From a virus: a DNA stretch of 35,688 bases. The position numbers and the translations under genes are program-made. The stretch is from the UHGV virus genome UHGV-0123446; one strand, 5' to 3'. Below are positions 3,080 through 35,688 of this stretch, one piece after another; positions within the stretch are counted from its first letter, which is position 1; the number at the start of each line of letters is the position of its first letter. Under the pieces are notes generated by a model, which was not told the origin of the DNA, did no database searches, and saw only the letters and a list, made by a program, of their open reading frames with translations.

Positions 3080-3595
3080 TTGACCATGTTTGATTACCAA
3101 GTTTCCAAACATCCACATTTTGATGAAGCCTGTCGTGCATTCGCATTGCGCCACAACCTAGTGCAACTGGCAGAACGTGCAGGCATGAATGTGCAGATTC
3201 TGCGGAACAAGCTGAACCCAGCTCAACCTCATTTATTAACCGCACCAGAAATCTGGTTGCTTACCGATCTGACTGAAGATTCAACGCTGGTAGATGGCTT
3301 TCTGGCACAGATTCACTGCCTGCCATGTGTACCGATTAATGAGGTGGCAAAAGAGAAACTGCCGCATTACGTCATGAGTGCAACTGCAGAGATAGGGCGT
3401 GTCGCGGCAGGTGCGGTTTCTGGCGATGTAAAAACCAGTGCAGGCCGTCGTGATGCGATCAGCAGCATTAACTCTGTTACACGACTGATGGCGCTGGCTG
3501 CTGTTTCATTGCAGGCCAGTTTACAGGCTAATCCTGCGATGGCGAGTGCAGTTGATACCGTGACTGGCCTCGGTGCTTCATTCGGTTTGCTGTGA
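3080..3595 (+). CDS. CII-like transcriptional activator (phage 186 CII family)
   Basis: N-terminus [45 protein letters not shown] matches my recollection of 186 CII; about 170 aa; position after apl. Confidence 0.6.
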
Positions 3596-3602
3596 GGTGC
3601 TT

Positions 3603-3803
3603 ATGCTGACGAAAGAACCATCATTTGCATCGCTGCTGGTAAAACAAAGTCCGGCAATGCACTACGGTCACGGCTGGATCATGGGTGAGGATGGTAAACG
3701 CTGGCATCCGTGCCGTTCACAAGATGAATTGCTGGCAGAACTATCTACGAAAAAACGGGGGAACAAATGGCTATTGAAGGCGCTGCGGCGACTGTTCCAT
3801 TAA
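3603..3803 (+). CDS. Hypothetical early protein (66 aa from the internal ATG)
   Basis: ORF in the early operon with ATG preceded by gagg; function unknown. Confidence 0.4.
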   Translation: MLTKEPSFASLLVKQSPAMHYGHGWIMGEDGKRWHPCRSQDELLAELSTKKRGNKWLLKALRRLFH

Positions 3804-4108
3804 GACCCGGTGAACGCCTGAATGGACTTAATCATATTGCGGAGTTAAGGGCGAAAGTTTTTGGTTTGAATATTGAGTCAGAGCTTGAGCGGTTTATTAA
3901 AGATATGCGTGATCCTCGGGATATCAATAATGAACAAAATAAACGGGCACTGGCTGCCATATTCTTTATGGCAAAAATTCCAGCTGAACGTCATAGCATC
4001 AGCATTAATGAGCTGACCACTGACGAAAAGCGGGAGTTGATTAAAGCAATGAATCATTTTCGTGCAGTGGTGAGCTTATTTCCCAGACGGCTAACCATGC
4101 CGAATTAA
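3767..4108 (+). CDS. Hypothetical early protein (113 aa)
   Basis: ORF in the early operon, same strand, overlaps the upstream ORF end; function unknown. Confidence 0.45.
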   Translation: MAIEGAAATVPLRPGERLNGLNHIAELRAKVFGLNIESELERFIKDMRDPRDINNEQNKRALAAIFFMAKIPAERHSISINELTTDEKRELIKAMNHFRAVVSLFPRRLTMPN

Positions 4109-4175: not shown

Positions 4176-4409
4176 ATGCGTAATATTGAAACCCTCACGA
4201 CCAAAACCGGACCGGATGATGCAGGTCTTAATCTTTTACTGACAGAGGCTCGTCTGGAAGAACGCCGGGCAAGGGCTGAAGCAATGGCTGCTCGCCTCGA
4301 TAGCCTGGCGTGTCATATCACCTCCCGCCAGCTAAACCACGTCGAAGCGGCAGAACTGCTGCGTGTGACTGCTGAAGCAATCCAGAACGAAGCGCAGGAG
4401 ATCCACTGA
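4176..4409 (+). CDS. Hypothetical early protein (77 aa from ATG 4176)
   Basis: aggag SD 8 nt upstream of ATG 4176; stop overlaps the start of the next gene (ATGA). Confidence 0.45.
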   Translation: MRNIETLTTKTGPDDAGLNLLLTEARLEERRARAEAMAARLDSLACHITSRQLNHVEAAELLRVTAEAIQNEAQEIH

Positions 4410-4636
4410 TGGCTGATGCAATGGATCTCGTACAGCAGCGCGTTGAAGAAGAACGCCAACGCCATATCCGTGCTGCCCGTGCCAAAACGCCGGGCGTGTC
4501 CCGCGTGCTTTGCGTTGAGTGTGAAGCGCCAATTCCGCCAGCACGCCGCCGTGCCATTCCGGGTGTGCAGCTTTGCATTACCTGTCAGGAAATCGCAGAG
4601 CTGAAAGGCAAACATTACAACGGAGGTGCTGTATGA
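4409..4636 (+). CDS. TraR/DksA-family C4 zinc-finger protein
   Basis: CVECEAPIPPARRRAIPGVQLCITCQ four-Cys motif typical of phage/plasmid TraR-like proteins; translationally coupled to flanking genes. Confidence 0.65.
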   Translation: MADAMDLVQQRVEEERQRHIRAARAKTPGVSRVLCVECEAPIPPARRRAIPGVQLCITCQEIAELKGKHYNGGAV

Positions 4637-5487
4637 GCACCATCCTGAAATGGGCAGGAAATAAAACCGCCATAATGTCCGAACTGAAAAAGCATCTTCC
4701 TGCTGGCCCGCGACTGGTTGAACCTTTCGCGGGTTCCTGTGCAGTGATGATGGAGACGGATTATCCCAGCTATCTTGTTGCGGATATTAATCCTGATTTA
4801 ATCAACCTCTATAAAAAGGTTGCTGCTGATTGTGAGGCGTTTATATCTCGTGCCAGAGCTTTATTTGAGGAAGCAAACAGGGAGGTGGCTTATTACAACA
4901 TAAGGCAGGAGTTTAATTACTCCACTGAAATTACTGATTTCATGAAAGCGGTATATTTCCTGTATCTCAATCGTCACGGTTACCGTGGTTTATGTCGCTA
5001 TAACAAGAGCGGGCATTTCAACATTCCCTACGGTAATTATAAAAATCCGTATTTCCCTGAAAAAGAAATTCGCGCATTTGCAGAGAAAGCCCAGCGGGCA
5101 ACGTTTATCTGCGCCAGCTTTGATGAAACGCTGGCGATGTTGAAGGTGGGGGATGTGGTGTATTGCGATCCGCCTTATGACGGTACGTTTTCCGGCTATC
5201 ACACTGATGGTTTCACTGAAGATGATCAGTATCACCTGGCATCCATTCTTGAACATCGGTCATCAGAAGGACATCCGGTCATTGTTTCTAACAGTAACAC
5301 GTCTTTGACCCGGTCCCTTTATCGTAATTTCACTCACCACTACATCAGGGCGAAACGCAGCATCGGCGTTGCAGCGGGGGAGGGAAAATTTGCAACAGAG
5401 ATGATTGCCACTAAATCTGCTAATTGGTTTAGTGCCGATTTTAGTAGGGGACGTGACTCTACTGTTATTTTCGGGGTGCAAGTGTGA
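4633..5487 (+). CDS. Orphan DNA adenine methyltransferase (Dam family, N6-adenine); ORF-track start 4573 is an extension
   Basis: N-terminal SAM-binding motif LKWAGNK...EPFAGSCAV and catalytic DPPY motif ([10 protein letters not shown]); no adjacent restriction endonuclease. Confidence 0.85.
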
Positions 5488-6314
5488 AAGAAATGCACCA
5501 CGGAATTCATCATTTCCATGGGACGCCTGTCTGGGGAAGTGCTGGCGACGTTCATCGTATTGCGGTGAGCGGAGCTGGCGCTTTCGTCTCCTATGTACGA
5601 CCAGATCAGATTGCGGCGTCCATTCAGCACGCTCAGGTCGTCGGCATTGATAACGGCGCATTTTCTGCATGGGTGCGTGGGCTAAAAATTAACTGGAGTG
5701 ATTTTTATAAATGGCTCCTGAACTATTACCACCATCCTAAGGTCGCTTTTTTTGTCATTCCTGATGTTGTGGACGGAGGTGAACGTGACAATGATGCCCT
5801 GATAAACGAAGTTCCGAAAATGTTCTACGGGAAGGCAACTCCCGTCTGGCATCTGCACGAGTCAATCGATCGGCTTATCGAGCTATGTCGTGAATGGCCT
5901 CGTGTCTGCTTTGGATCGTCTGGTGAATATGCGGCTATCAGAACTGCGCACTGGCATCGTCGTATGCAGGACGCTTTTGAAGCAATTTATTGCCGACACA
6001 ATTTCAAAACAGCTGTTCATGGTTTGCGCATGCTTGACGGTCGTGTGTTGGGAAATTACCCACTGGCGACTGCCGACAGTACAAATCTTGCCTGCAATGT
6101 CCCCAAATTTAATAGCAAATATCCTGAGCTGACGCGGGCTATTCAGGAGGCTGAGTATTCGCGCAATCTGACGGAAAAGGAGCTGAAAGCTGTCATTCTG
6201 AAAAACCGTTGCGCAATTTTAAAAGGTGCAATTGAAGCTGTTCGCCCACCTTCAGTTTCTGATTGGCTGTCGAATGGTTTGCAGCCTTCACAGCTCGAAC
6301 TGGAGATTGCGTAA
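5484..6314 (+). CDS. Uncharacterised protein (about 275 aa) translationally coupled to dam; function unknown
   Basis: GTG start overlaps the dam stop (GTGA), stop overlaps the gene A start (TAATG); no recognisable nucleotide-binding or zinc motif. Confidence 0.5.
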
Positions 6315-8686
6315 TGAACTACAGCTATTCCTGGAATGCTGAGAAAAAAGCAATCAATCCTTACGTAGAGACAGAAGAGCAATCTTCAGTTTCTGCGCTT
6401 TCAAACCTGATCGCTCTGTACGCTGCCGATAACGAGCAGGAACAGCTGCGCCGCGAGGCACTGAGTGATCAGGTCTGGGAGCGTTATTTCTTTAATGAAT
6501 CCCGTGATCCTGTCCAGCGCGAAATGGAGCAGGATAAGCTCATTAGTCGGGCAAAGCTGGCGCATGAGCAGCAGCGTTTTAATCCAGATATGGTCATTCT
6601 GGCGGACGTCAATGCCCAGCCTTCCCATATCAGCAAGCCGCTGATGCAACGTATTGAATACTTCAGCAGCCTGGGCAGGCCAAAGGCTTATTCCCGCTAT
6701 TTGCGTGAGACGATTAAGCCATGTCTGGAACGGCTGGAGCATGTACGCGACTGTCAGCTATCCACTTCTTTTCGCTTTATGGCAAGCCATGAAGGGCTGG
6801 ACGGCCTGCTGATCCTGCCTGAAATGAGTCAGGATCAGGTGAAACGCCTGTCCACCCTGGTAGCTGCGCATATGAGCATGTGCCTTGATGCAGCTTGTGG
6901 CGATTTGTATGTCACCGATGACGTTAAGCCAGAAGAAATCCGCAAGACATGGGAAAAGGTGGCAGCGGAAACCCTGCGTCTGGATGTCATCCCGCCTGCG
7001 TTTGAGCAACTCCGCCGGAAAAGAAACCGCCGTAAACCCGTGCCCTATGAACTCATTCCGGGTTCGCTGGCGCGTATGTTGTGCGCTGACTGGTGGTACC
7101 GGAAATTATGGAAGATGCGTTGCGAATGGCGGGAAGAGCAGTTGCGTGCTGTCTGCCTGGTCAGCAAAAAAGCATCTCCCTATGTCAGCTATGAAGCCGT
7201 GATGCATAAACGTGAGCAGCGCCGTAAGTCGCTGGAGTTTTTTCGTTCTCATGAACTGGTGAACGAAGACGGCGACACGCTGGACATGGAGGATGTGGTA
7301 AACGCCAGCAGCAGCAACCCTGCGCATCGCCGCAATGAGATGATGGCCTGTGTTAAAGGCCTGGAGCTTATCGCGGAAATGCGCGGTGACTGCGCCGTTT
7401 TCTACACCATCACCTGTCCGTCACGTTTCCATTCCACGCTAAATAATGGCAGGCCCAACCCAACTTGGACAAATGCGACGGTAAGACAAAGCAGTGATTA
7501 TCTGGTCGGCATGTTTGCTGCATTTCGTAAGGCGATGCACAAAGCCGGATTGCGGTGGTATGGCGTGCGGGTGGCTGAGCCGCATCATGACGGTACAGTT
7601 CACTGGCACCTGTTGTGTTTTATGCGCAAAAAAGACCGCCGCGCCATCACTGCATTACTGCGTAAGTTTGCCATCCGTGAAGACCGCGAGGAACTGGGCA
7701 ATAACACTGGGCCGCGCTTTAAGTCTGAGTTGATTAACCCGCGCAAAGGTACGCCAACAAGCTACATCGCGAAATACATCAGTAAGAACATTGACGGGCG
7801 TGGTCTGGCTGGCGAGATCAGCAAGGAAACGGGTAAATCTCTGCGTGATAACGCTGAATACGTTAATGCCTGGGCGTCTCTGCATCGTGTTCAGCAATTC
7901 CGCTTCTTTGGCATTCCGGGGCGTCAGGCTTACCGTGAACTGCGATTGCTGGCTGGTCAGGCGGCAAGGCAACAGGGTGACAAAAAAGCAGGTGCGCCGG
8001 TACTGGATAACCCGCGCCTTGATGCCATTCTGGCTGCAGCTGATGCTGGTTGCTTTGCCACCTACATCATGAAGCAGGGCGGCGTACTGGTTCCCCGTAA
8101 ATATCACCTCATCAGAACCGCTTATGAAATCAACGAAGAGCCGACCGCCTATGGCGATCACGGTATTCGTATTTATGGCATCTGGTCACCCATTGCAGAG
8201 GGCAAGATCTGCACTCATGCAGTGAAGTGGAAAATGGTTCGTAAAGCCGTTGACGTTCAGGAGGCGGCAGCCGACCAGGGCGCTTGCGCCCCTTGGACTC
8301 GTGGCAATAACTGTCCCCTTGCTGAAAGCTTGTACCAACAAGGGAAAGACAAATCAGCTGATGGGGATACCAGAACGGATATCACCCGCATGGATGACAA
8401 GGAATTGCACGATTACCTGCACAGTATGAACAAAAAAGAGCGCCGGGAACTGGCTGCAAGGTTACGCCTGGTGAAACAGAAACGGCGTAGAGACTACAAA
8501 CAGCGAATTACAGATCATCAGCGACAGCAGCTCGTCTATGAACTGAAGTCCAGAGGATTTGATGGCAGCGAGAAAGAGGTCGATTTACTCCTTCGCGGTG
8601 GCAGTATTCCGTCAGGAGCAGGCCTGCGTATCTTCTATCGGAACCAGCGTTTGCAGGAAGATGATAAGTGGCGGGATCTGTATTAA
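6314..8686 (+). CDS. A: Replication initiation protein gpA (rolling-circle replication endonuclease), P2/186 family
   Basis: About 790 aa, last gene of the early operon; start ATG overlaps the upstream stop; ORF-track start 6263 is an extension. Confidence 0.85.
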
Positions 8687-9570: not shown

Positions 9571-10605
9571 ATGGATAAAAGATATCAGGTTTTTGTTAGT
9601 TCAACTTTTGCTGATCTTGAAGAAGAAAGACAGGAAGTAATGCAAGCACTGCTGGAGCTTGATTGTATGCCAGCAGGAATGGAATTATTTCCAGCAACAA
9701 ATAGTGATCAGTGGAGTTTAATAAAAAAAATAATTGACGATAGTGATTATTATATTGTTATCTTGGCAGGGCGTTATGGTTCAATTGGTCCTGATGGAAT
9801 AAGCTATACAGAAATGGAGTATCGTTATGCTTTGGAAACTGGTAAGCCAGTTATAGGTTTTATTCATAAAGATAAAAGTAACCTCCCCGCAAAACGTTGT
9901 GAGTCAAACCCTGAAGGCGTAGAAAAACTAAAGGCTTTCGAAGAGCTAGTTAAAACAAAATTATGTCGTTTTTGGGAGTCTCCTGCAGAGTTAGGTAGCC
10001 AGGTTAGCAGAAGTTTGATTAGACTAATTAAAGAATGTCCTGCAATTGGGTGGGTTAAAGGAAATTTAGTAACTAATGATGGTGATGCAAAGGAAATATT
10101 GAAATTAAAAAGGCGAATTGAGGAGCTTGAAAGTCAACTTGTATCAAGTATGACTGAAGCGCCTGCAGGTGCAGAAAAACTATCTCAAGGAGATGAGCTT
10201 TTTGAATTGGATTATGAATTCTGTGTGTCGCCTACAGAATGGAGACATAATGGTGAAGAATATACCGATAAGGTCAAATTAAGCTGGAACGATATTTTTT
10301 CATATGTTTCGCCTTTGATGATAGATGAGATAGTGGATGATAAGCTATATAGTGCTTTAAATAACTGTGTGCGAAATGCAGTTCAAGATATCATCTATGA
10401 GGATTTTAAAGATATGAATTTATTATCTTTAAAAGTATCTAATTCTGATTTCCAAACAATAAAAGTGCAGTTTAGGGCGCTTGGGTTAATTATTAAAAGT
10501 GAAAAGAGTAGAAGTGTTAAAGATAAAGGTACTTATTGGACTTTAACACCGTATGGCGAAAATTTAATGACAACATTGAGAGCGATTAAAAAAACTTTGG
10601 TATAG
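9571..10605 (+). CDS. Cargo protein of 344 aa with DUF4062/TIR-like N-terminal domain; candidate anti-phage defence protein
   Basis: Clean ORF with its own promoter and terminator; AT-rich; N-terminal pattern YQVFVSSTFADLEEER...DYYIVILAGRYGS...SYTEMEYRYA...GKPVIGFI recalled as the DUF4062 signature; no Walker A; coiled-coil-like stretch KEILKLKRRIEELESQL; unknown C-terminal half. Confidence 0.6.
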   Translation: MDKRYQVFVSSTFADLEEERQEVMQALLELDCMPAGMELFPATNSDQWSLIKKIIDDSDYYIVILAGRYGSIGPDGISYTEMEYRYALETGKPVIGFIHKDKSNLPAKRCESNPEGVEKLKAFEELVKTKLCRFWESPAELGSQVSRSLIRLIKECPAIGWVKGNLVTNDGDAKEILKLKRRIEELESQLVSSMTEAPAGAEKLSQGDELFELDYEFCVSPTEWRHNGEEYTDKVKLSWNDIFSYVSPLMIDEIVDDKLYSALNNCVRNAVQDIIYEDFKDMNLLSLKVSNSDFQTIKVQFRALGLIIKSEKSRSVKDKGTYWTLTPYGENLMTTLRAIKKTLV

Positions 10606-23306: not shown

Positions 23307-23747
23307 ATGAATTACATATATTCCGCGACTACAAACTCTTTCTATCCGCTGGAGATGAAAGAGGATTACACTCAAGCTGACTCATGGCCAGATGATGCTG
23401 TTGAAGTTGATGAGCAAGTGTATATTGCGTTTTCCGGATTACCGCCGAAAGGAAAAATCCGTATCGCTGGAGAAAATGGTTTTCCTGCATGGTCCGAAAT
23501 TCCACCACCAACACATGAGGAACAAATTGCTGCAGCCGAACTGGAGAAGCAGCAATTGATTAATCAGGCCAACGATTATATGAACAGTAAACAATGGCCT
23601 GGTAAAGCGGCTATTGGTCGTCTGAAAGGTGACGAACTGGCGCAATATAATTTGTGGCTGGATTACCTGGACGCACTGGAACTGGTCGATACTTCCGGTG
23701 CGCCAGATATTGAATGGCCTACGCCTCCGGCAGTTCAGGCCAGATGA
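23307..23747 (+). CDS. G: Tail fibre assembly chaperone gpG (currently expressed orientation)
   Basis: 146 aa, conserved Tfa C-terminal pattern (LELVDTSGAPDIEWPTPP); directly after H. Confidence 0.8.
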   Translation: MNYIYSATTNSFYPLEMKEDYTQADSWPDDAVEVDEQVYIAFSGLPPKGKIRIAGENGFPAWSEIPPPTHEEQIAAAELEKQQLINQANDYMNSKQWPGKAAIGRLKGDELAQYNLWLDYLDALELVDTSGAPDIEWPTPPAVQAR

Positions 23748-24324
23748 CATCCGGCGCGGTGCTGGTATCTGTTGCCGTCACCGCGTCAATGTAATCCAGC
23801 ACAGCGTTAAGTCGGGTGGTTTCTGCCTGCGTCAGCTTCCGCCCGGCCTGCAATTTCAGTTGAATCAGACTGATGGAAGCCATTGCAGTATCAATCAGTG
23901 ACTGACGCTGTGCTTCTGCCGCGTCTACTGCGGCGCTATGCTGTGCCTCAGTATCGGTCACCCATTTCTTACCATCCCATTTATCGAATGGCGTTAACGG
24001 GGCGATAGTGGTTGTATTTTCAGGATAATCACCCGGAGCTGTGATTTCTTTGGCGTCTCCCGTTTCGGTGTTATAGACGATTTCACCGCGATGGTCTGGC
24101 ACATATTCCCATGCGTTTAAATCCATCGAACGGCAGATAGCATAACCCGCCTTATGTGTGCCAGGAGCATCTAAACAGGAATATGCAGGGATACCGACAC
24201 CCACAGCAAGATATTCAGTTGATGCAGAAATATACTCCCGTGTCTCACTGTCATAGTTATAAACGGTAATCTCTCCTGCCTTTGTGGCAATAAATTTACT
24301 ATTCAAGATGGCGTTATACATCAT
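23719..24324 (-). CDS. Alternative tail fibre assembly chaperone (inverse-orientation partner)
   Basis: 201 aa, Tfa-like C-terminus (DTSTAPDVIWPELPEA); convergent with and overlapping G; downstream of the alternative fibre tip segment. Confidence 0.75.
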   Translation of the reverse strand: MMYNAILNSKFIATKAGEITVYNYDSETREYISASTEYLAVGVGIPAYSCLDAPGTHKAGYAICRSMDLNAWEYVPDHRGEIVYNTETGDAKEITAPGDYPENTTTIAPLTPFDKWDGKKWVTDTEAQHSAAVDAAEAQRQSLIDTAMASISLIQLKLQAGRKLTQAETTRLNAVLDYIDAVTATDTSTAPDVIWPELPEA

Positions 24325-24857
24325 GCAGCCCTCACAATGTAATTAAATGAAATATTACGTGGGCGTGTCTCTGCTGCACCGACAATACTGGTACTCAACC
24401 CCGTCGCTGTTCGTTTGTTATTTTTATTTCCTTCAATCAGACAGTTGTAATCATCATTACCAATTAACGAATTAGTGGCATCAATACCGTCCGGGGACAA
24501 GGCATTAGTTGTAGAACTTAAAGTCAGCATCTCGTCTGAACTTGGAAGATTTTTTAATGGTATTTCATTGCGAGAAATACCCGCGTAAAAAAAGGACTCA
24601 TGCCTGTGCGCTTCAAAAGAGTCATCCTGAAGACTTAGCAAGGCACGTCCCGCATCCACACCACGCCCGTCATCCCAGCCACGAATAAACTCACCACGTA
24701 AATCAGGCAATTTATTTGTCGGATAAGCCTTTGCCAGTTCCGGGTATTCTTCAGCAGAAAAAGCGGCACCGTTACATTTCAGCCAGCCTGTTGGCGGAGT
24801 GGCGGAAGGCCACGGAACAGGCACGCCAACGGGTAATGCCGAACCTTCTCCCAAACC
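24321..24857 (-). CDS. Alternative tail-fibre C-terminal segment (promoterless; would be fused to the H constant part after inversion)
   Basis: Begins at the hix-like site with the same GLGE junction as H; contains the LPVGVPVPWPS...GWLKCNG...LPDLRG motif typical of Mu/P1/e14-type fibre variable parts. Confidence 0.7.
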   Translation of the reverse strand, partial: GLGEGSALPVGVPVPWPSATPPTGWLKCNGAAFSAEEYPELAKAYPTNKLPDLRGEFIRGWDDGRGVDAGRALLSLQDDSFEAHRHESFFYAGISRNEIPLKNLPSSDEMLTLSSTTNALSPDGIDATNSLIGNDDYNCLIEGNKNNKRTATGLSTSIVGAAETRPRNISFNYIVRAA

Positions 24858-24871
24858 AACGTTTAAGGAAA
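24846..24871. other. hix/gix-like invertase recombination site (right)
   Basis: ttctcccaaaccaacgtttaaggaaa; inverted relative to the site at 22921..22946; about 50 bp upstream of the invertase gene. Confidence 0.55.
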
Positions 24872-24920
24872 TGCAGAGGTAACAGCTAACTGGCATCATC
24901 TCCGGTTTTTATTCAGGGGG

Positions 24921-25493
24921 ATGATCATGCTTATTGGCTATGTACGCGTGTCAACAAATGACCAGAACACCGATTTGCAACGTAATGCACTGAACTGCGC
25001 GGGATGTGAGCGGATTTTTGAGGACAAAATCAGTGGCACTAAGTCCGACAGACCGGGGCTGAAAAAACTACTCAGGACACTATCGGCAGGAGACACGCTG
25101 GTTGTCTGGAAGCTGGACAGGTTGGGACGCAGTATGCGGCATCTTGTTACGCTGATAGAAGAGTTGCGCCAGCGTGGCGTGAATTTCCGAAGCCTGACTG
25201 ACAGTATTGATACCAGTACCCCAATGGGCCGTTTCTTTTTTCATGTCATGGGTGCCCTGGCTGAAATGGAACGCGAACTGATAGTTGAACGTACCAGGGC
25301 GGGGATTGCTGCAGCTCGCGACAAAGGCAGAGTAGGTGGACGCCGTCCTAAGTTGACCACCGAACAGTGGGCACAGATTGGACGTTTACTAGAGGCCGGA
25401 GAATCAAGACAGCGTATTGCACTGATTTTTGATGTGGGCGTTTCTACCATTTATAGAAAATTTCCGGCAAATAAGAGCAGTGAATCCCCCTGA
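24921..25493 (+). CDS. Serine DNA invertase (Hin/Gin/Pin/Cin family)
   Basis: N-terminal resolvase catalytic domain IGYVRVSTNDQ...VVWKLDRLGRS...MGRFFFHVMGALAEMERELIVERT and C-terminal HTH; closely resembles Hin. Confidence 0.9.
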   Translation: MIMLIGYVRVSTNDQNTDLQRNALNCAGCERIFEDKISGTKSDRPGLKKLLRTLSAGDTLVVWKLDRLGRSMRHLVTLIEELRQRGVNFRSLTDSIDTSTPMGRFFFHVMGALAEMERELIVERTRAGIAAARDKGRVGGRRPKLTTEQWAQIGRLLEAGESRQRIALIFDVGVSTIYRKFPANKSSESP

Positions 25494-33018: not shown

Positions 33019-34704
33019 TTATCCTAATCCTGGCCATACCATGACGATGATTGTCCCTGCCAGCGTCAGCAGGACGTTGGCGATTGCATAGGTGCCCGCA
33101 TAGCCCAGCGCCGGGATGTTACTGCGAGCTGTATCACTGATGATCTCCATTGCCGGCGCGCAGGTGCGTGCGCCCATCATTGCGCCGAATAACAGTGCGC
33201 GGTTCATTCGCAATACATAAGCACCGAACAAGAAACAGATAACCACTGGCACAAGACTGACAATCAATCCGGCAATCAACATCTGACCGCCAATCGCGCC
33301 CAGGCCGTTATTAATACCGCTACCGGCGCTCAGACCAACGCCTGCCATAAACACCATTAAGCCGAACTCTTTCACCATGCTTAATGCACCCTGCGGAATG
33401 TAACCGAAGGTCGGGTGGTTAGCGCGCATAAATCCCAGCATAATTCCGGCGAATAACAACCCGGCAGCGTTCCCCATGCCGAAACTGAATGTGCTGAACT
33501 GGAAGGTGATCATCCCGATCATCAGCCCAATAACAAAGAAGGCGCAGAATGCCAGCAAGTCAGTGACCTGGCTGTGAATCGAGATAAAGCCGATGCGATC
33601 GGCGATGGTTTTTACGCGACGGGCATCGCCGCTGACTTGTAAAACGTCACCTTTGTTAAGCACGACGTTGTCATCTATCGGCATCTCAATCTGGCTACGA
33701 ATGACGCGGTTAAGGAAGCAACCGTGATCGGTCAACTTCAGTTGTGCGAGACGTTTGCCCACGGCGTTATGGTTTTTAACGACCACTTCTTCAGTGACGA
33801 TACGCATGTCGAGAAGGTCACGATCGAAAACTTCTTTGCCGTTACGGAAGCTGGGATCGAGTCGGGCGTGGGCGTCGGGATAGCCTACCAACGCTATTTC
33901 ATCTCCCATTTGTAGCACAGCATCACCGTCTGGATTCGCCAGAATCCCGTTACGTCGAATACGTTCAATGTAGCAGCCGGTTTGTCGATAAATACCCAGT
34001 TCACGCAGATTTTTGCCGTCGGTCCAGGCCACCAGCTCCGGGCCGACGCGGTAGGCGCGGATCACCGGTAAATAAACCTTACGGTTGGCATCAGTGTCCA
34101 GGCCACGTTCGCGGGCGATTTGCTGGGCGCTGGTCTGTAAGTCCTGATGCTGCAATTTCGGCAAGTAACGCGCACCAACAATCAAACTCACCAGACCGAT
34201 TAAATAGGTTAAGGCATACCCGAGGCTCAGATTATCCAGTGCCAGTGAGAGCTGCCTGCTTTCCATGCCGGAATGACGCAGTGTATCGCCAGCACCGACC
34301 AGAACCGGTGTCGACGTCATAGAGCCAGCTAACATACCGGCCGTCAGGCCAATATCCCAGCCAAACAGCTTACCTAACCCTAAGGCGATCACCAGCGCAC
34401 TGCCAACCATCACCAGTGCTAACATTAGGTAATTTTTCCCATCGCGAAAAAAAATGGAAAAAAAGTTCGGTCCGGCTTCGACCCCGACGCAGAAAATAAA
34501 CAGCATAAAGCCAAGATTAAGCGCGTCGGTGTTAATGCTGAAATGTTGTTGGCCTAATAACAGCGATACGACTAAAACGCCAATGGAATTACCCAGTTGG
34601 ATCGAACCAAGTCGTAATTTCCCGAGACATAGCCCAAGCGCGAGGACCACAAATAATAACAGAATGTAATTCCCATTTAACAATTCGGCGACGTTTATAT
34701 TCAC
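33019..34704 (-). CDS. ybjL: Putative transport protein YbjL (AAE-family transporter with two cytoplasmic regulatory domains)
   Basis: 561 aa with multiple TM segments at both ends and a central soluble region; recognised as E. coli YbjL; position next to ybjM/grxA. Confidence 0.85.
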
Positions 34705-34973
34705 GGAGGCTAACTTCTTGTTTACTAGTAAGCTGTTGAAAGAAATGGTAATTTACGATAATGTTTTTTACCAGAATTCAGGGCGCAGATTCATTCAGCG
34801 CACCTAAACGATAGTAAAGTAACAATATATTTTACTAGTGTAATCACATTAGGTATCAACGGCTATATGAATTGCGTTGGCCTATATTAGCATGGAATGC
34901 GAAGCGGCTTTATCTTACTGAACGCCACACTGGCGAAAAATGTGTTCGATAGACGCAGTGTCAGGAGGAACGA

Positions 34974-35351
34974 GTGAAACATAAACAACGTTGGGCGGGG
35001 GCAATCTGCTGTTTTGTCCTCTTCATTGTGGTGTGTCTTTTTCTGGCGACGCACATGAAAGGCGCTTTTCGGGCTGCCGGGCATCCTGAAATCGGTTTGC
35101 TATTTTTCATTCTTCCTGGTGCAGTTGCCAGCTTCTTTTCACATCGTAGAGAAGTCCTGAAACCTCTGTTTGGCGCAATGCTGGCGGCACCCTGTTCGAT
35201 GCTCATTATGCGGCTGTTTTTTTCACCGACGCGCTCATTCTGGCAAGAGCTGGCATGGTTATTAAGTGCGGTGTTCTGGTGTGCGCTGGGGGCATTGTGT
35301 TTCTTATTTATCAGTAGCTTGTTTAAACCACAGCACAGAAAAAATCAATAA
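34974..35351 (+). CDS. ybjM: Inner membrane protein YbjM
   Basis: 125 aa, four hydrophobic segments; locus context. Confidence 0.7.
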   Translation: MKHKQRWAGAICCFVLFIVVCLFLATHMKGAFRAAGHPEIGLLFFILPGAVASFFSHRREVLKPLFGAMLAAPCSMLIMRLFFSPTRSFWQELAWLLSAVFWCALGALCFLFISSLFKPQHRKNQ

Positions 35352-35374
35352 AGCCCTCAACGCGAGGGCTTGTC
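35351..35374. terminator. Bidirectional rho-independent terminator between ybjM and grxA (gccctc aacgc gagggc)
   Basis: 6-bp GC-rich stem, 5-nt loop, between convergent genes. Confidence 0.45.
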
Positions 35375-35380
35375 AGACGA

Positions 35381-35638
35381 TCAGGCGTCCAGATTCTCTT
35401 TCACCCATGCAGCAAAATCGGTATAGCCGCCGATATGTTGCTGATCGACAAAAATCTGCGGCACGGTTTCTACGGGTTTACCTGCCTTTTGTTGTAGATC
35501 TTCTTTAGTGATCCCTTCCGCACGAATATCTACATACTGATACTGGAAATCATCGCGTTCATTGCTCAATTTCTCAGCCAGATCTTTTGCACGCACACAG
35601 TAAGGGCAACCCGGACGACCAAAAATAACGGTTTGCAT
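35381..35638 (-). CDS. grxA: Glutaredoxin 1 (start at MQTVIFGRPGCPYC; ORF-track start 35653 is an extension)
   Basis: CPYC active-site motif and full-length match to E. coli GrxA (85 aa). Confidence 0.85.
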   Translation of the reverse strand: MQTVIFGRPGCPYCVRAKDLAEKLSNERDDFQYQYVDIRAEGITKEDLQQKAGKPVETVPQIFVDQQHIGGYTDFAAWVKENLDA

Positions 35639-35688
35639 TATTTCTCTCCTCATAGATTTATGCCTGTAATGATCACGCTAAAATGTAT

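Follow-up and report, generated by a model that had tools for sequence, protein, structure and literature searches.

In the Queuovirinae phages CAjan and 9g, the transglycosylase DpdA1 inserts the 7-deazaguanine precursor preQ0 into DNA: deletion of dpdA from CAjan abolishes dPreQ0, and 9g dpdA alone in E. coli leads to the insertion of preQ0 from the host pool into plasmid DNA (PMC6884629). These phages replace 25-32% of their G and encode FolE, QueD, QueE, QueC, and a YhhQ-like transporter by dpdA. A further group of phages carries DpdA as a "singleton", without preQ0 genes, and the hosts of these phages have the queuosine pathway (PMC6884629). Two of them have been described chemically, the large lytic Salmonella phage 7-11 (a "DpdA only" or "group 3" phage of Hutinet et al. 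2019), with dADG at 0.02% of G (PMC6884629), and the lytic Pantoea siphovirus MED16, whose gp38 was described as DpdA, with dADG at 0.13% of G and with SEN1 gp38 and SW9 gp39 as its closest viral relatives (PMC8306585). Beyond the mention of SEN1 and SW9 in that paper, we found no literature on a DpdA of P2-like phages or prophages. Here we describe such a protein of 276 amino acids (aa), encoded in the virus genome UHGV-0123446, a stretch of 35,688 nucleotides (nt) referred to below as the window, which is a P2-like (Peduoviridae) prophage of E. coli together with its host flanks. By sequence and by its modeled structure, the protein is a DpdA homologue, a small zinc-less member of the tRNA-guanine transglycosylase (TGT) superfamily, and the gene belongs to the already described singleton group as an E. 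coli P2-like member rather than representing a new kind of system. We put the probability at about 0.65 that it acts as a singleton phage DpdA, placing host-derived 7-deazaguanine in phage DNA, alongside the Dam methylase encoded immediately upstream. The two genes are as follows.

4633-5487, + strand: Dam-family (D12 class) N6-adenine DNA methyltransferase, 284 aa (PF02086, TIGR00571, 2G1P, PADLOC)
5484-6314, + strand: dpdA-like gene, 276-aa singleton phage DpdA of the TGT superfamily, predicted to be a DNA guanine/7-deazaguanine transglycosylase

The original prediction, made from the sequence of the window, had placed a Dam-type methylase with a DPPY motif directly before an uncharacterized open reading frame (ORF) whose start overlaps the methylase stop as GTGA and whose end overlaps the start of gene A. 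The sequence confirms all of these details, with the caveat that PGAP chooses a later start. The first start codon of the ORF, GTG at 5484-5486, overlaps the Dam stop TGA at 5485-5487, and its own stop TAA lies at 6312-6314, whereas the RefSeq/PGAP start is the ATG at 5493, which yields a 273-aa product (WP_001420002.1, "hypothetical protein") and would mean a 5-nt gap and no overlap. The 276-aa form is the more plausible, if unproven, of the two, as the position equivalent to 5484 is GTG or ATG in homologous loci, some of which have no alternative Met; the sequence GGGGTG lies 5 nt upstream of 5484. The ORF is a real coding sequence rather than a chance one, given its 4313 homologues at E<=1e-5, which form 863 clusters at 50% identity. 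The allele is present in 102 of 5426 complete E. coli genomes, 99-100% conserved, with a 103rd genome holding a 90-nt fragment only, and all 102 full-length copies are annotated as "hypothetical protein"; strains RM10466 (NZ_CP028381.1) and ACN001 are among its carriers.

The identification as DpdA rests in the first place on similarity to phage proteins of that family. Among the PHROGs, the 276-aa protein falls in phrog_887, "queuine tRNA-ribosyltransferase" (2.4e-96), as does CAjan DpdA (8e-96), and the CAjan, MED16, BTP1, and SEN1 proteins all match this family at 1e-70 to 1e-102. Searching phage genomes with tblastn recovered the P2-like Salmonella phages SEN1 and SI22 at 75% identity, MED16 DpdA at 55% identity over 96% of the length, the P22-like phages BTP1 and SfI at ~40% identity over the core, and 7-11 DpdA at 34% identity over 96% of the protein. 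A profile built from a family alignment of 80 diverse relatives, reaching down to 27% identity, aligns with CAjan DpdA at a probability of 98.9% in hhalign (E 2.8e-17, 173 columns), and residues 54-63 of the protein align with LDSGAFSAH of CAjan DpdA and correspond by motif to TDSGGFQ of E. coli Tgt. The kinship with TGT and DpdA, offered in the original prediction only as a tentative hypothesis, is thereby borne out, and no confident homology to an unrelated family, the outcome named there as decisive against it, emerged from the searches.

Structure prediction, which had been suggested as a check, also gave a TGT-like barrel. The AlphaFold model, built with 38 homologues (pLDDT 89), contains eight strand-helix units arranged as a (β/α)8 barrel, and the structures it most resembles are those of Cap10, bacterial DpdA, and archaeal TGT. 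In BFVD, the named matches at E<=1e-3 are all queuine tRNA-ribosyltransferases, with one exception (rank 31). Six residues, D56, D94, H123, H179, D198, and S199, are invariant in the 80 relatives, and the model places all six at, or close to, the C-terminal end of a barrel strand. Their codons and predicted roles are as follows.

5649-5651, + strand: D56, in the loop I-D-N-G-A-F; predicted general acid/base and base-recognition Asp, aligned with the D of CAjan LDSGAF
5763-5765, + strand: D94, in I-P-D-V; tentatively predicted second base-recognition Asp
5850-5852, + strand: H123, in P-V-W-H-L-H-E-S; predicted hydrogen-bonder to the Watson-Crick edge, conserved in CAjan and at a beta-strand end in the model
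6018-6020, + strand: H179, in H-G-L-R-M-L; predicted hydrogen-bond partner of the nucleophile, conserved in CAjan
6075-6080, + strand: D198-S199, in A-D-S-T-N; predicted catalytic nucleophile Asp, aligned with CAjan CDSS

The roles were assigned by analogy with published descriptions rather than by superposition of coordinates. In bacterial DpdA, D95 is the general acid/base, D130 and H181 recognize the base, and D256 is the nucleophile (PMC10164549), and the corresponding set in Cap10 is D73/S74, D122, K154, and the pair H226/D248 (bioRxiv 10.1101/2025.04.06.647259). The order and spacing of the six invariant residues agree with those of the functional residues described for both enzymes. On this basis, D56 would be the counterpart of D95 in bacterial DpdA and D73 in Cap10, H123 would match H181 and K154, respectively, H179 would match H226 of Cap10, judging from the residue spacing in that protein, and D198 would correspond to D256 of bacterial DpdA, D248 of Cap10, and D264 of E. 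coli Tgt. The founder of the superfamily shares the reaction type, and its motifs TDSGGFQ and MFDCV correspond to IDNGAFS and TADST of the window protein, whereas it is a 375-aa enzyme that acts at tRNA position 34 with preQ1. One idea about the chemistry, that a subfamily-specific cysteine, either C204 or C243, converts the preQ0 nitrile into the amide of dADG by hydration, was rejected, as MED16 has Ser204 and 7-11 has Ile204 and Ala243.

Several observations weigh against assigning this protein to DNA modification. Its sequence has no match in Pfam, NCBIfam, or PADLOC. Neither it nor any of the 80 relatives matches PF01702, the Pfam TGT family, at E<=1; neither it in phmmer searches nor its family as profiles of 38 and 80 sequences found a TGT or DpdA chain in the PDB, the profiles returning coiled-coil noise only; and aligning the family profile with the E. 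coli Tgt sequence alone in hhalign yielded a probability of 0.6%. The family is linked to TGT through CAjan DpdA as an intermediate, through structure, and by the HHpred result published for MED16. The zinc motif CXCX2CX22H is absent, the cysteines of the protein being C135, C142, C170, C204, and C243 with no CxCxxC; the motif is present as CDCYTC...H in E. coli Tgt and as C368/C370/C373/H395 in bacterial DpdA, while CAjan DpdA and Cap10 likewise have no zinc site. D94 aligns with a Ser in CAjan DpdA, whose Asp lies three residues later. Among the relatives themselves, the singleton DpdA of Mycobacterium phage Orion is associated with no modification (PMC6884629), modification is very sparse in both tested singleton-DpdA phages (PMC6884629, PMC8306585), and that of MED16 blocked none of the restriction enzymes tested (PMC8306585), so that a protective role is unproven. 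Finally, the published cases of 7-deazaguanine in phage DNA all concern relatives, namely MED16, 7-11, CAjan, and 9g.

With these points taken into account, the singleton DpdA reading suggests the following course of events. Dam, the replication endonuclease A, and DpdA would be produced together from the early lytic operon, and during lytic replication DpdA would flip out selected guanines of the phage DNA. D198, held by H179, would displace the guanine via a covalent ribosyl-enzyme intermediate, with D56 as general acid/base, and the intermediate would be resolved with preQ0 or its amide ADG from the host pool of queuosine precursors. Judging from the two singleton-DpdA phages tested, this would probably leave a sparse, site-specific dPreQ0 or dADG mark at well below 1% of G. 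Dam would meanwhile keep GATC fully methylated, placing N6-methyladenine (m6A) on the same genomes, and the most likely benefit of both marks would be evasion of host restriction or of other DNA-targeting defenses. The analysis itself yields the homology, the fold, the conserved residues of the active site, the position in the operon, and the lack of precursor genes; from these we infer how the reaction proceeds, which base is used, how extensive the modification is, and that it counters restriction. Deazaguanine DNA is itself targeted by some defense systems, a cost that could explain the patchy distribution of the gene described below.

A dependence on host preQ0 is suggested by the gene content of the prophage. 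Homologues of folE, queD, queE, queC, and yhhQ were found neither among the scanned prophage cargo ORFs nor in the RefSeq annotation of a related prophage, so that this DpdA is a singleton that should depend on the preQ0 of its host. E. coli makes preQ0. In this respect, the window resembles MED16 and SEN1, which are singletons without preQ0 genes, and 7-11, which has no precursor genes and whose host has a full queuosine pathway. The proteins of MED16, SEN1, and SW9 are of the same subfamily and share with it a C-terminal extension with KYPE.T ... RCAIL ... E.V.PP, and MED16 also encodes an adenine methylase; it differs in being lytic, in that its dpdA does not adjoin a replication endonuclease gene, and in that its methylase is of another family and lies six genes away. 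SEN1 is P2-like and has dpdA directly upstream of its replication gene, but has no dam, a 92-aa ORF preceding dpdA instead. The CAjan and 9g enzymes share the PHROG, the D-x-G-A-F loop, the His, and the H...D-S motifs with the window protein, but are only 17% identical to it, and the window phage is temperate and has none of their precursor and transporter genes.

The 7-11 protein (L097:3501-4274) belongs to a large lytic phage and appears to lack the N-terminal motif H-x-H-G-T-P-x-W-G, which is invariant or nearly so in the family of the window protein; in 7-11, a stop codon lies just upstream of the first possible Met. The absence of this motif might be related to the very low dADG level of that phage.

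The bacterial and defense-related members of the superfamily are more distant. DpdA of Salmonella Montevideo (7UI4) is a 413-aa protein with four insertions and the zinc site, needs the ATPase DpdB, and works with DpdC and restriction components (PMC10164549); its structure-based identity to the window protein is 12%, with no detectable sequence similarity. Nothing resembling DpdB, DpdC, or DpdD-K was found among the scanned cargo ORFs or in the annotation of the related prophage, and the neighbors of dpdA in the window are TraR, Dam, and A. Cap10 of type IV CBASS (9NTN) binds a protein N-terminus carrying 7-amido-7-deazaguanine and acts with Cap9 and a CD-NTase in host defense, and with 11% identity its resemblance to the window protein is structural only.

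The methylase encoded upstream is solidly assigned from its sequence. It matches PF02086 at 2e-76 (257 bits against a cut-off of 22) and TIGR00571 with 318 bits (cut-off 115), and aligns with the E. coli Dam structure 2G1P at E 4e-73 over residues 4-260. The catalytic DPPY occupies residues 179-182 (nt 5167-5178), and an EPFAGSC motif of the FxGxG type that binds S-adenosylmethionine is also present. Given the similarity across the whole of E. coli Dam, the enzyme is probably GATC-specific, but it scores below the equivalog cut-off for E. coli Dam (288 against 441) and is thus a member of the family and not the host orthologue. The original prediction had considered it to have no restriction partner, which agrees with the present data, in that no endonuclease-like gene was found among the scanned prophage cargo ORFs or in the RefSeq annotation of a close prophage with the same allele, and the top PADLOC model is "orphan methyltransferase" (6e-110).

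The original prediction had also proposed that the tight coupling of the two genes points to a related function. To place the pair in context, 93 related loci were surveyed, many of them near-identical or redundant contigs, and the following features of the window bear on the comparison.

4409-4636, + strand: TraR/DksA-type C4 zinc-finger gene (PF01258 4e-11, TIGR02419 67 bits, phrog_54 2e-30)
5409-6388, + strand: mosaic cassette of 980 nt relative to Klebsiella phage 4LV2017, running from the final 79 nt of dam through the whole of dpdA to nt 75 of gene A
6314-8686, + strand: gene A, P2-type replication endonuclease (ORF; RefSeq product "replication endonuclease")

The end of the TraR/DksA gene overlaps the dam start at 4633 as ATGA, and the gene A ATG (6314-6316) shares one base with the dpdA stop (TAATG). 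Across the survey, Dam is the upstream neighbor of dpdA in 51 of the 93 loci. These 51 form three lineages, each with a Dam allele of its own (100%, 68-74%, and 67-70% identical to that of the window), and the remaining loci of the survey have TraR, or TraR and a small ORF, in that place, as in SEN1. In many loci, including SEN1, most of the 186-type, and most of the BTP1-type, no methylase was found within 4-6 kb of dpdA, and BTP1, MED16, and 7-11 have neither an A gene nor an adjacent Dam by dpdA. Conversely, Klebsiella phages with 95% identity across TraR and dam have no dpdA, and dam runs straight into A. In 4LV2017, annotated with dam followed by gpA, 195 nt without dpdA stand in place of the cassette, with blastn identity of 95.4% up to 5408 and resuming at 97.4% from 6389. 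A conserved dam-dpdA operon pair was therefore rejected as a rule, as each gene occurs without the other, and the two are separable cassettes in an accessory slot upstream of gene A. A weak hairpin on the + strand at 5442-5474, which has 8 pairs (3 G-C) and is followed by TTATTTTCGG, falls within the mosaic cassette, in the last 45 nt of dam and just before the dpdA start; the terminator scan of the region gave matches no commoner than chance, and the hairpin may mean nothing.

Adjacency is thus insufficient to establish a related function, but the part of the proposal that concerns function finds support elsewhere, in that both genes encode DNA-modifying enzymes and that their association has recurred independently. 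In addition to the three Dam alleles, in-frame fusions of DpdA to adenine methylases were found in relatives: a 577-aa DpdA-D12 Dam fusion in a Rosenbergiella metrosideri prophage (L013:3977-5710); a second, 575-aa fusion of the same composition (P0272, L100/L101:5001-6728), 42% identical to the first and found on two independent contigs, one from NCBI and one from Logan; and a 483-aa DpdA-MT-A70 fusion (P0274, L102:721-2172). From the recurrent pairing and the gene fusions, we conclude that dam and dpdA, which both modify DNA, are often selected together. A further protein, P0210 (335 aa), joins QueD of the 6-pyruvoyl-tetrahydropterin synthase family (residues 7-134) to a DpdA domain (130-334) and is a direct link of the family to preQ0 synthesis. 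A gene of ~155 aa in the preQ0-transporter family PF02592 (Vut_1, YhhQ) directly precedes dpdA, or overlaps its start, at the loci of the P0272 and P0274 fusions and at four others from IMG/VR; these are loci of unrelated temperate phages.

L100:4564-5031: PF02592 gene
L102:275-748: PF02592 gene
L183:5564-6028: PF02592 gene
L167 and L178:5534-5998: PF02592 genes
L184:3030-3467: PF02592 gene

An adenine methylase directly flanks dpdA in several of these loci, often downstream, which gives a recurring transporter/DpdA/methylase module, and the dpdA cluster of CAjan likewise holds a YhhQ-like gene. The fusions to QueD and to methylases, together with the YhhQ-type neighbors, indicate that the DpdA family draws on 7-deazaguanine precursors and acts on DNA, and argue against a tRNA or protein substrate. 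Three other chimeric entries, P0273 (DpdA-gpA), P0011 (N-terminal Dam-DpdA), and P0125 (DpdA-tail protein D), look like products of frameshift, deletion, or prophage degradation and were excluded as evidence of fusion; such entries could mislead domain-fusion searches.

These associations raise the question of whether Dam and DpdA are mechanistically coupled as a module that places two marks, the methylase providing DNA binding or base flipping, or m6A guiding DpdA, with the deazaguanine in or beside the methylase site, such as at the G of GATC. The three dam-dpdA lineages and the fusions are what such coupling would lead one to expect, D12, MT-A70, or MED16-gp32-like methylases flank dpdA in further loci, and the need of bacterial DpdA for DpdB to insert preQ0 (PMC10164549) provides a precedent for a partner. 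We nevertheless consider it unlikely, as many dpdA genes have no methylase nearby, dam stands without dpdA in the Klebsiella phages, 9g DpdA works alone in E. coli (PMC6884629), and methylases are common accessory genes in the same regions, so that the base rate of adjacency is high. The numbers for MED16, 244 GATC sites per genome against ~58 m6dA and ~33 dADG, also argue against a stoichiometric mark shared at GATC, and the sharing of GATC sites by deazaguanine and m6A was not supported as a candidate. A more specific proposal, that the adjacent or fused methylase (D12 Dam, MT-A70, or phage Dam-like) targets or licenses the singleton DpdA of temperate phages in place of the DpdB ATPase and so forms a composite unit producing a dual motif of m6A and dPreQ0/dADG, seems to us quite doubtful; were it true, the dam-dpdA pair in a tractable E. 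coli prophage would be a natural system in which to show dual marking.

The other neighbor of dpdA invites a different explanation. The gene lies directly upstream of A in 85 of the 93 loci (redundant counts), whatever lies before it and with P2-type and 186-type A proteins alike, which are only 30-35% identical, and every dereplicated P2-like locus listed has ATGA or TAATG as the overlap between dpdA and A. A small number of deazaguanines at specific regulatory sites (the protein A origin/nick site or cos, for example) might then act as a signal in epigenetic control or replication and not as armor against restriction, a view that accords with the ~9-33 modified bases per genome in singleton-DpdA phages (computed from PMC6884629 and PMC8306585) and with the lack of detectable restriction protection in MED16 (PMC8306585). 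This is very unlikely, however, given that the homologues in the P22-like BTP1 and in MED16 and 7-11 have no A-type gene nearby, that close relatives replicate without dpdA, and that the position before A can also be taken by dam or by small unrelated ORFs, as in a generic accessory hotspot.

It is less probable still that the substrate is not DNA, the protein acting like a TGT on host or phage tRNA, or like Cap10 with protein-attached deazaguanine. The founder of the superfamily does act on tRNA, but the window protein is far closer in sequence to phage DpdAs with modified phage DNA, has relatives fused to DNA methyltransferases, and lacks the zinc subdomain and the other insertions that TGTs use to hold tRNA, and the host already has Tgt. 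Regarding the protein-linked alternative, no QueC-like Cap9 gene and no CD-NTase gene with an M(G/S)G(G/S)GG motif was found in the window, and PADLOC gave no match. Least credible of all is that the gene is a functionless passenger, encoding an all but inactive enzyme and spread by recombination among P2-like phages. The patchy distribution (the cassette being absent from 95%-identical relatives), the very low or zero modification in other singleton-DpdA phages (PMC6884629, PMC8306585), and the frameshifted or chimeric copies would speak for this reading, but it is contradicted by strong purifying selection (75 invariant positions among 38 sequences at 59-100% identity), by the invariance of the six putative active-site residues in the most distant relatives, by the conservation of the allele in complete E. 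coli genomes, and by the retained stop-start overlap with A.

Returning to the singleton DpdA reading, its implications extend beyond this prophage. Two DNA-marking enzymes are encoded next to each other in this phage, and one of them escapes standard annotation; the DpdA family is invisible to Pfam, NCBIfam, PADLOC, and PGAP, so that prophage-borne 7-deazaguanine DNA modification in Enterobacterales is under-counted. An inducible P2-like E. coli prophage with dpdA offers a simple and tractable system for examining the role of singleton DpdA, the occurrence of dADG over dPreQ0, the low levels of modification, and the benefit to the phage, with host queC, queD, queF, and dam mutants and defenses directed at deazaguanine DNA at hand, and the methylase fusions and YhhQ-type neighbors provide leads to composite anti-restriction modules.

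The remaining features of the window are consistent with its placement as a prophage, which is integrated between rcdA and ybjL of E. coli; the first 25 kb are 95-97% identical to hundreds of E. coli chromosomes. The flanks and control genes are as follows.

20-586: TetR-family gene (rcdA in RefSeq), left host flank
691-1821, - strand: integrase
2137-2712, - strand: CI repressor, divergent from the early operon
2731-2759, + strand: candidate early lytic promoter (TTGACG-17-TATGTT) preceding the cox/apl-like gene (consensus scan only)
33019-35653: ybjL, ybjM, and grxA homologues, right host flank

The rightward early operon has the order cox/apl-like gene, cII, fil, DUF5347, DUF2732, TraR/DksA, dam, dpdA, and gene A. 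The consensus scan gave fewer matches in total than expected by chance, and the promoter is a candidate owing to its position between the divergent CI gene and the first early gene, which fits the P2/186 architecture; if it is functional, transcription of the entire operon, with dam and dpdA included, would start from it. The gene for a Fil-type cell-division inhibitor (phrog_816, 3573-3803, + strand) overlaps the DUF5347 gene (3767-4108, + strand) by 37 nt, an arrangement which indicates that the left part of the operon is phage 186-like, though gene A is P2-type.

Further cargo is found in other parts of the prophage. A 344-aa DUF4062-domain protein (phrog_15411, unknown function) is encoded at 9571-10605 (+ strand), between gene A/dinI and the portal gene, in a variable region that is the usual position of defense cargo in P2-like phages; a PADLOC scan gave no match for it. 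The interval between the integrase and CI, a position used for cargo expressed in lysogeny, holds a 63-aa ORF (1930-2121, - strand) with a signal-peptide-like N-terminus and several cysteines, which in the related RM10466 prophage is replaced at the same position by a gene pair encoding an AAA ATPase and a DUF4276 protein. In the tail region, a DNA invertase gene (24921-25493, + strand; Resolvase and HTH_7) adjoins a tail-collar fiber fragment and a tail-fiber assembly gene (23719-24899, - strand), which suggests an invertible tail-fiber switch of host range.

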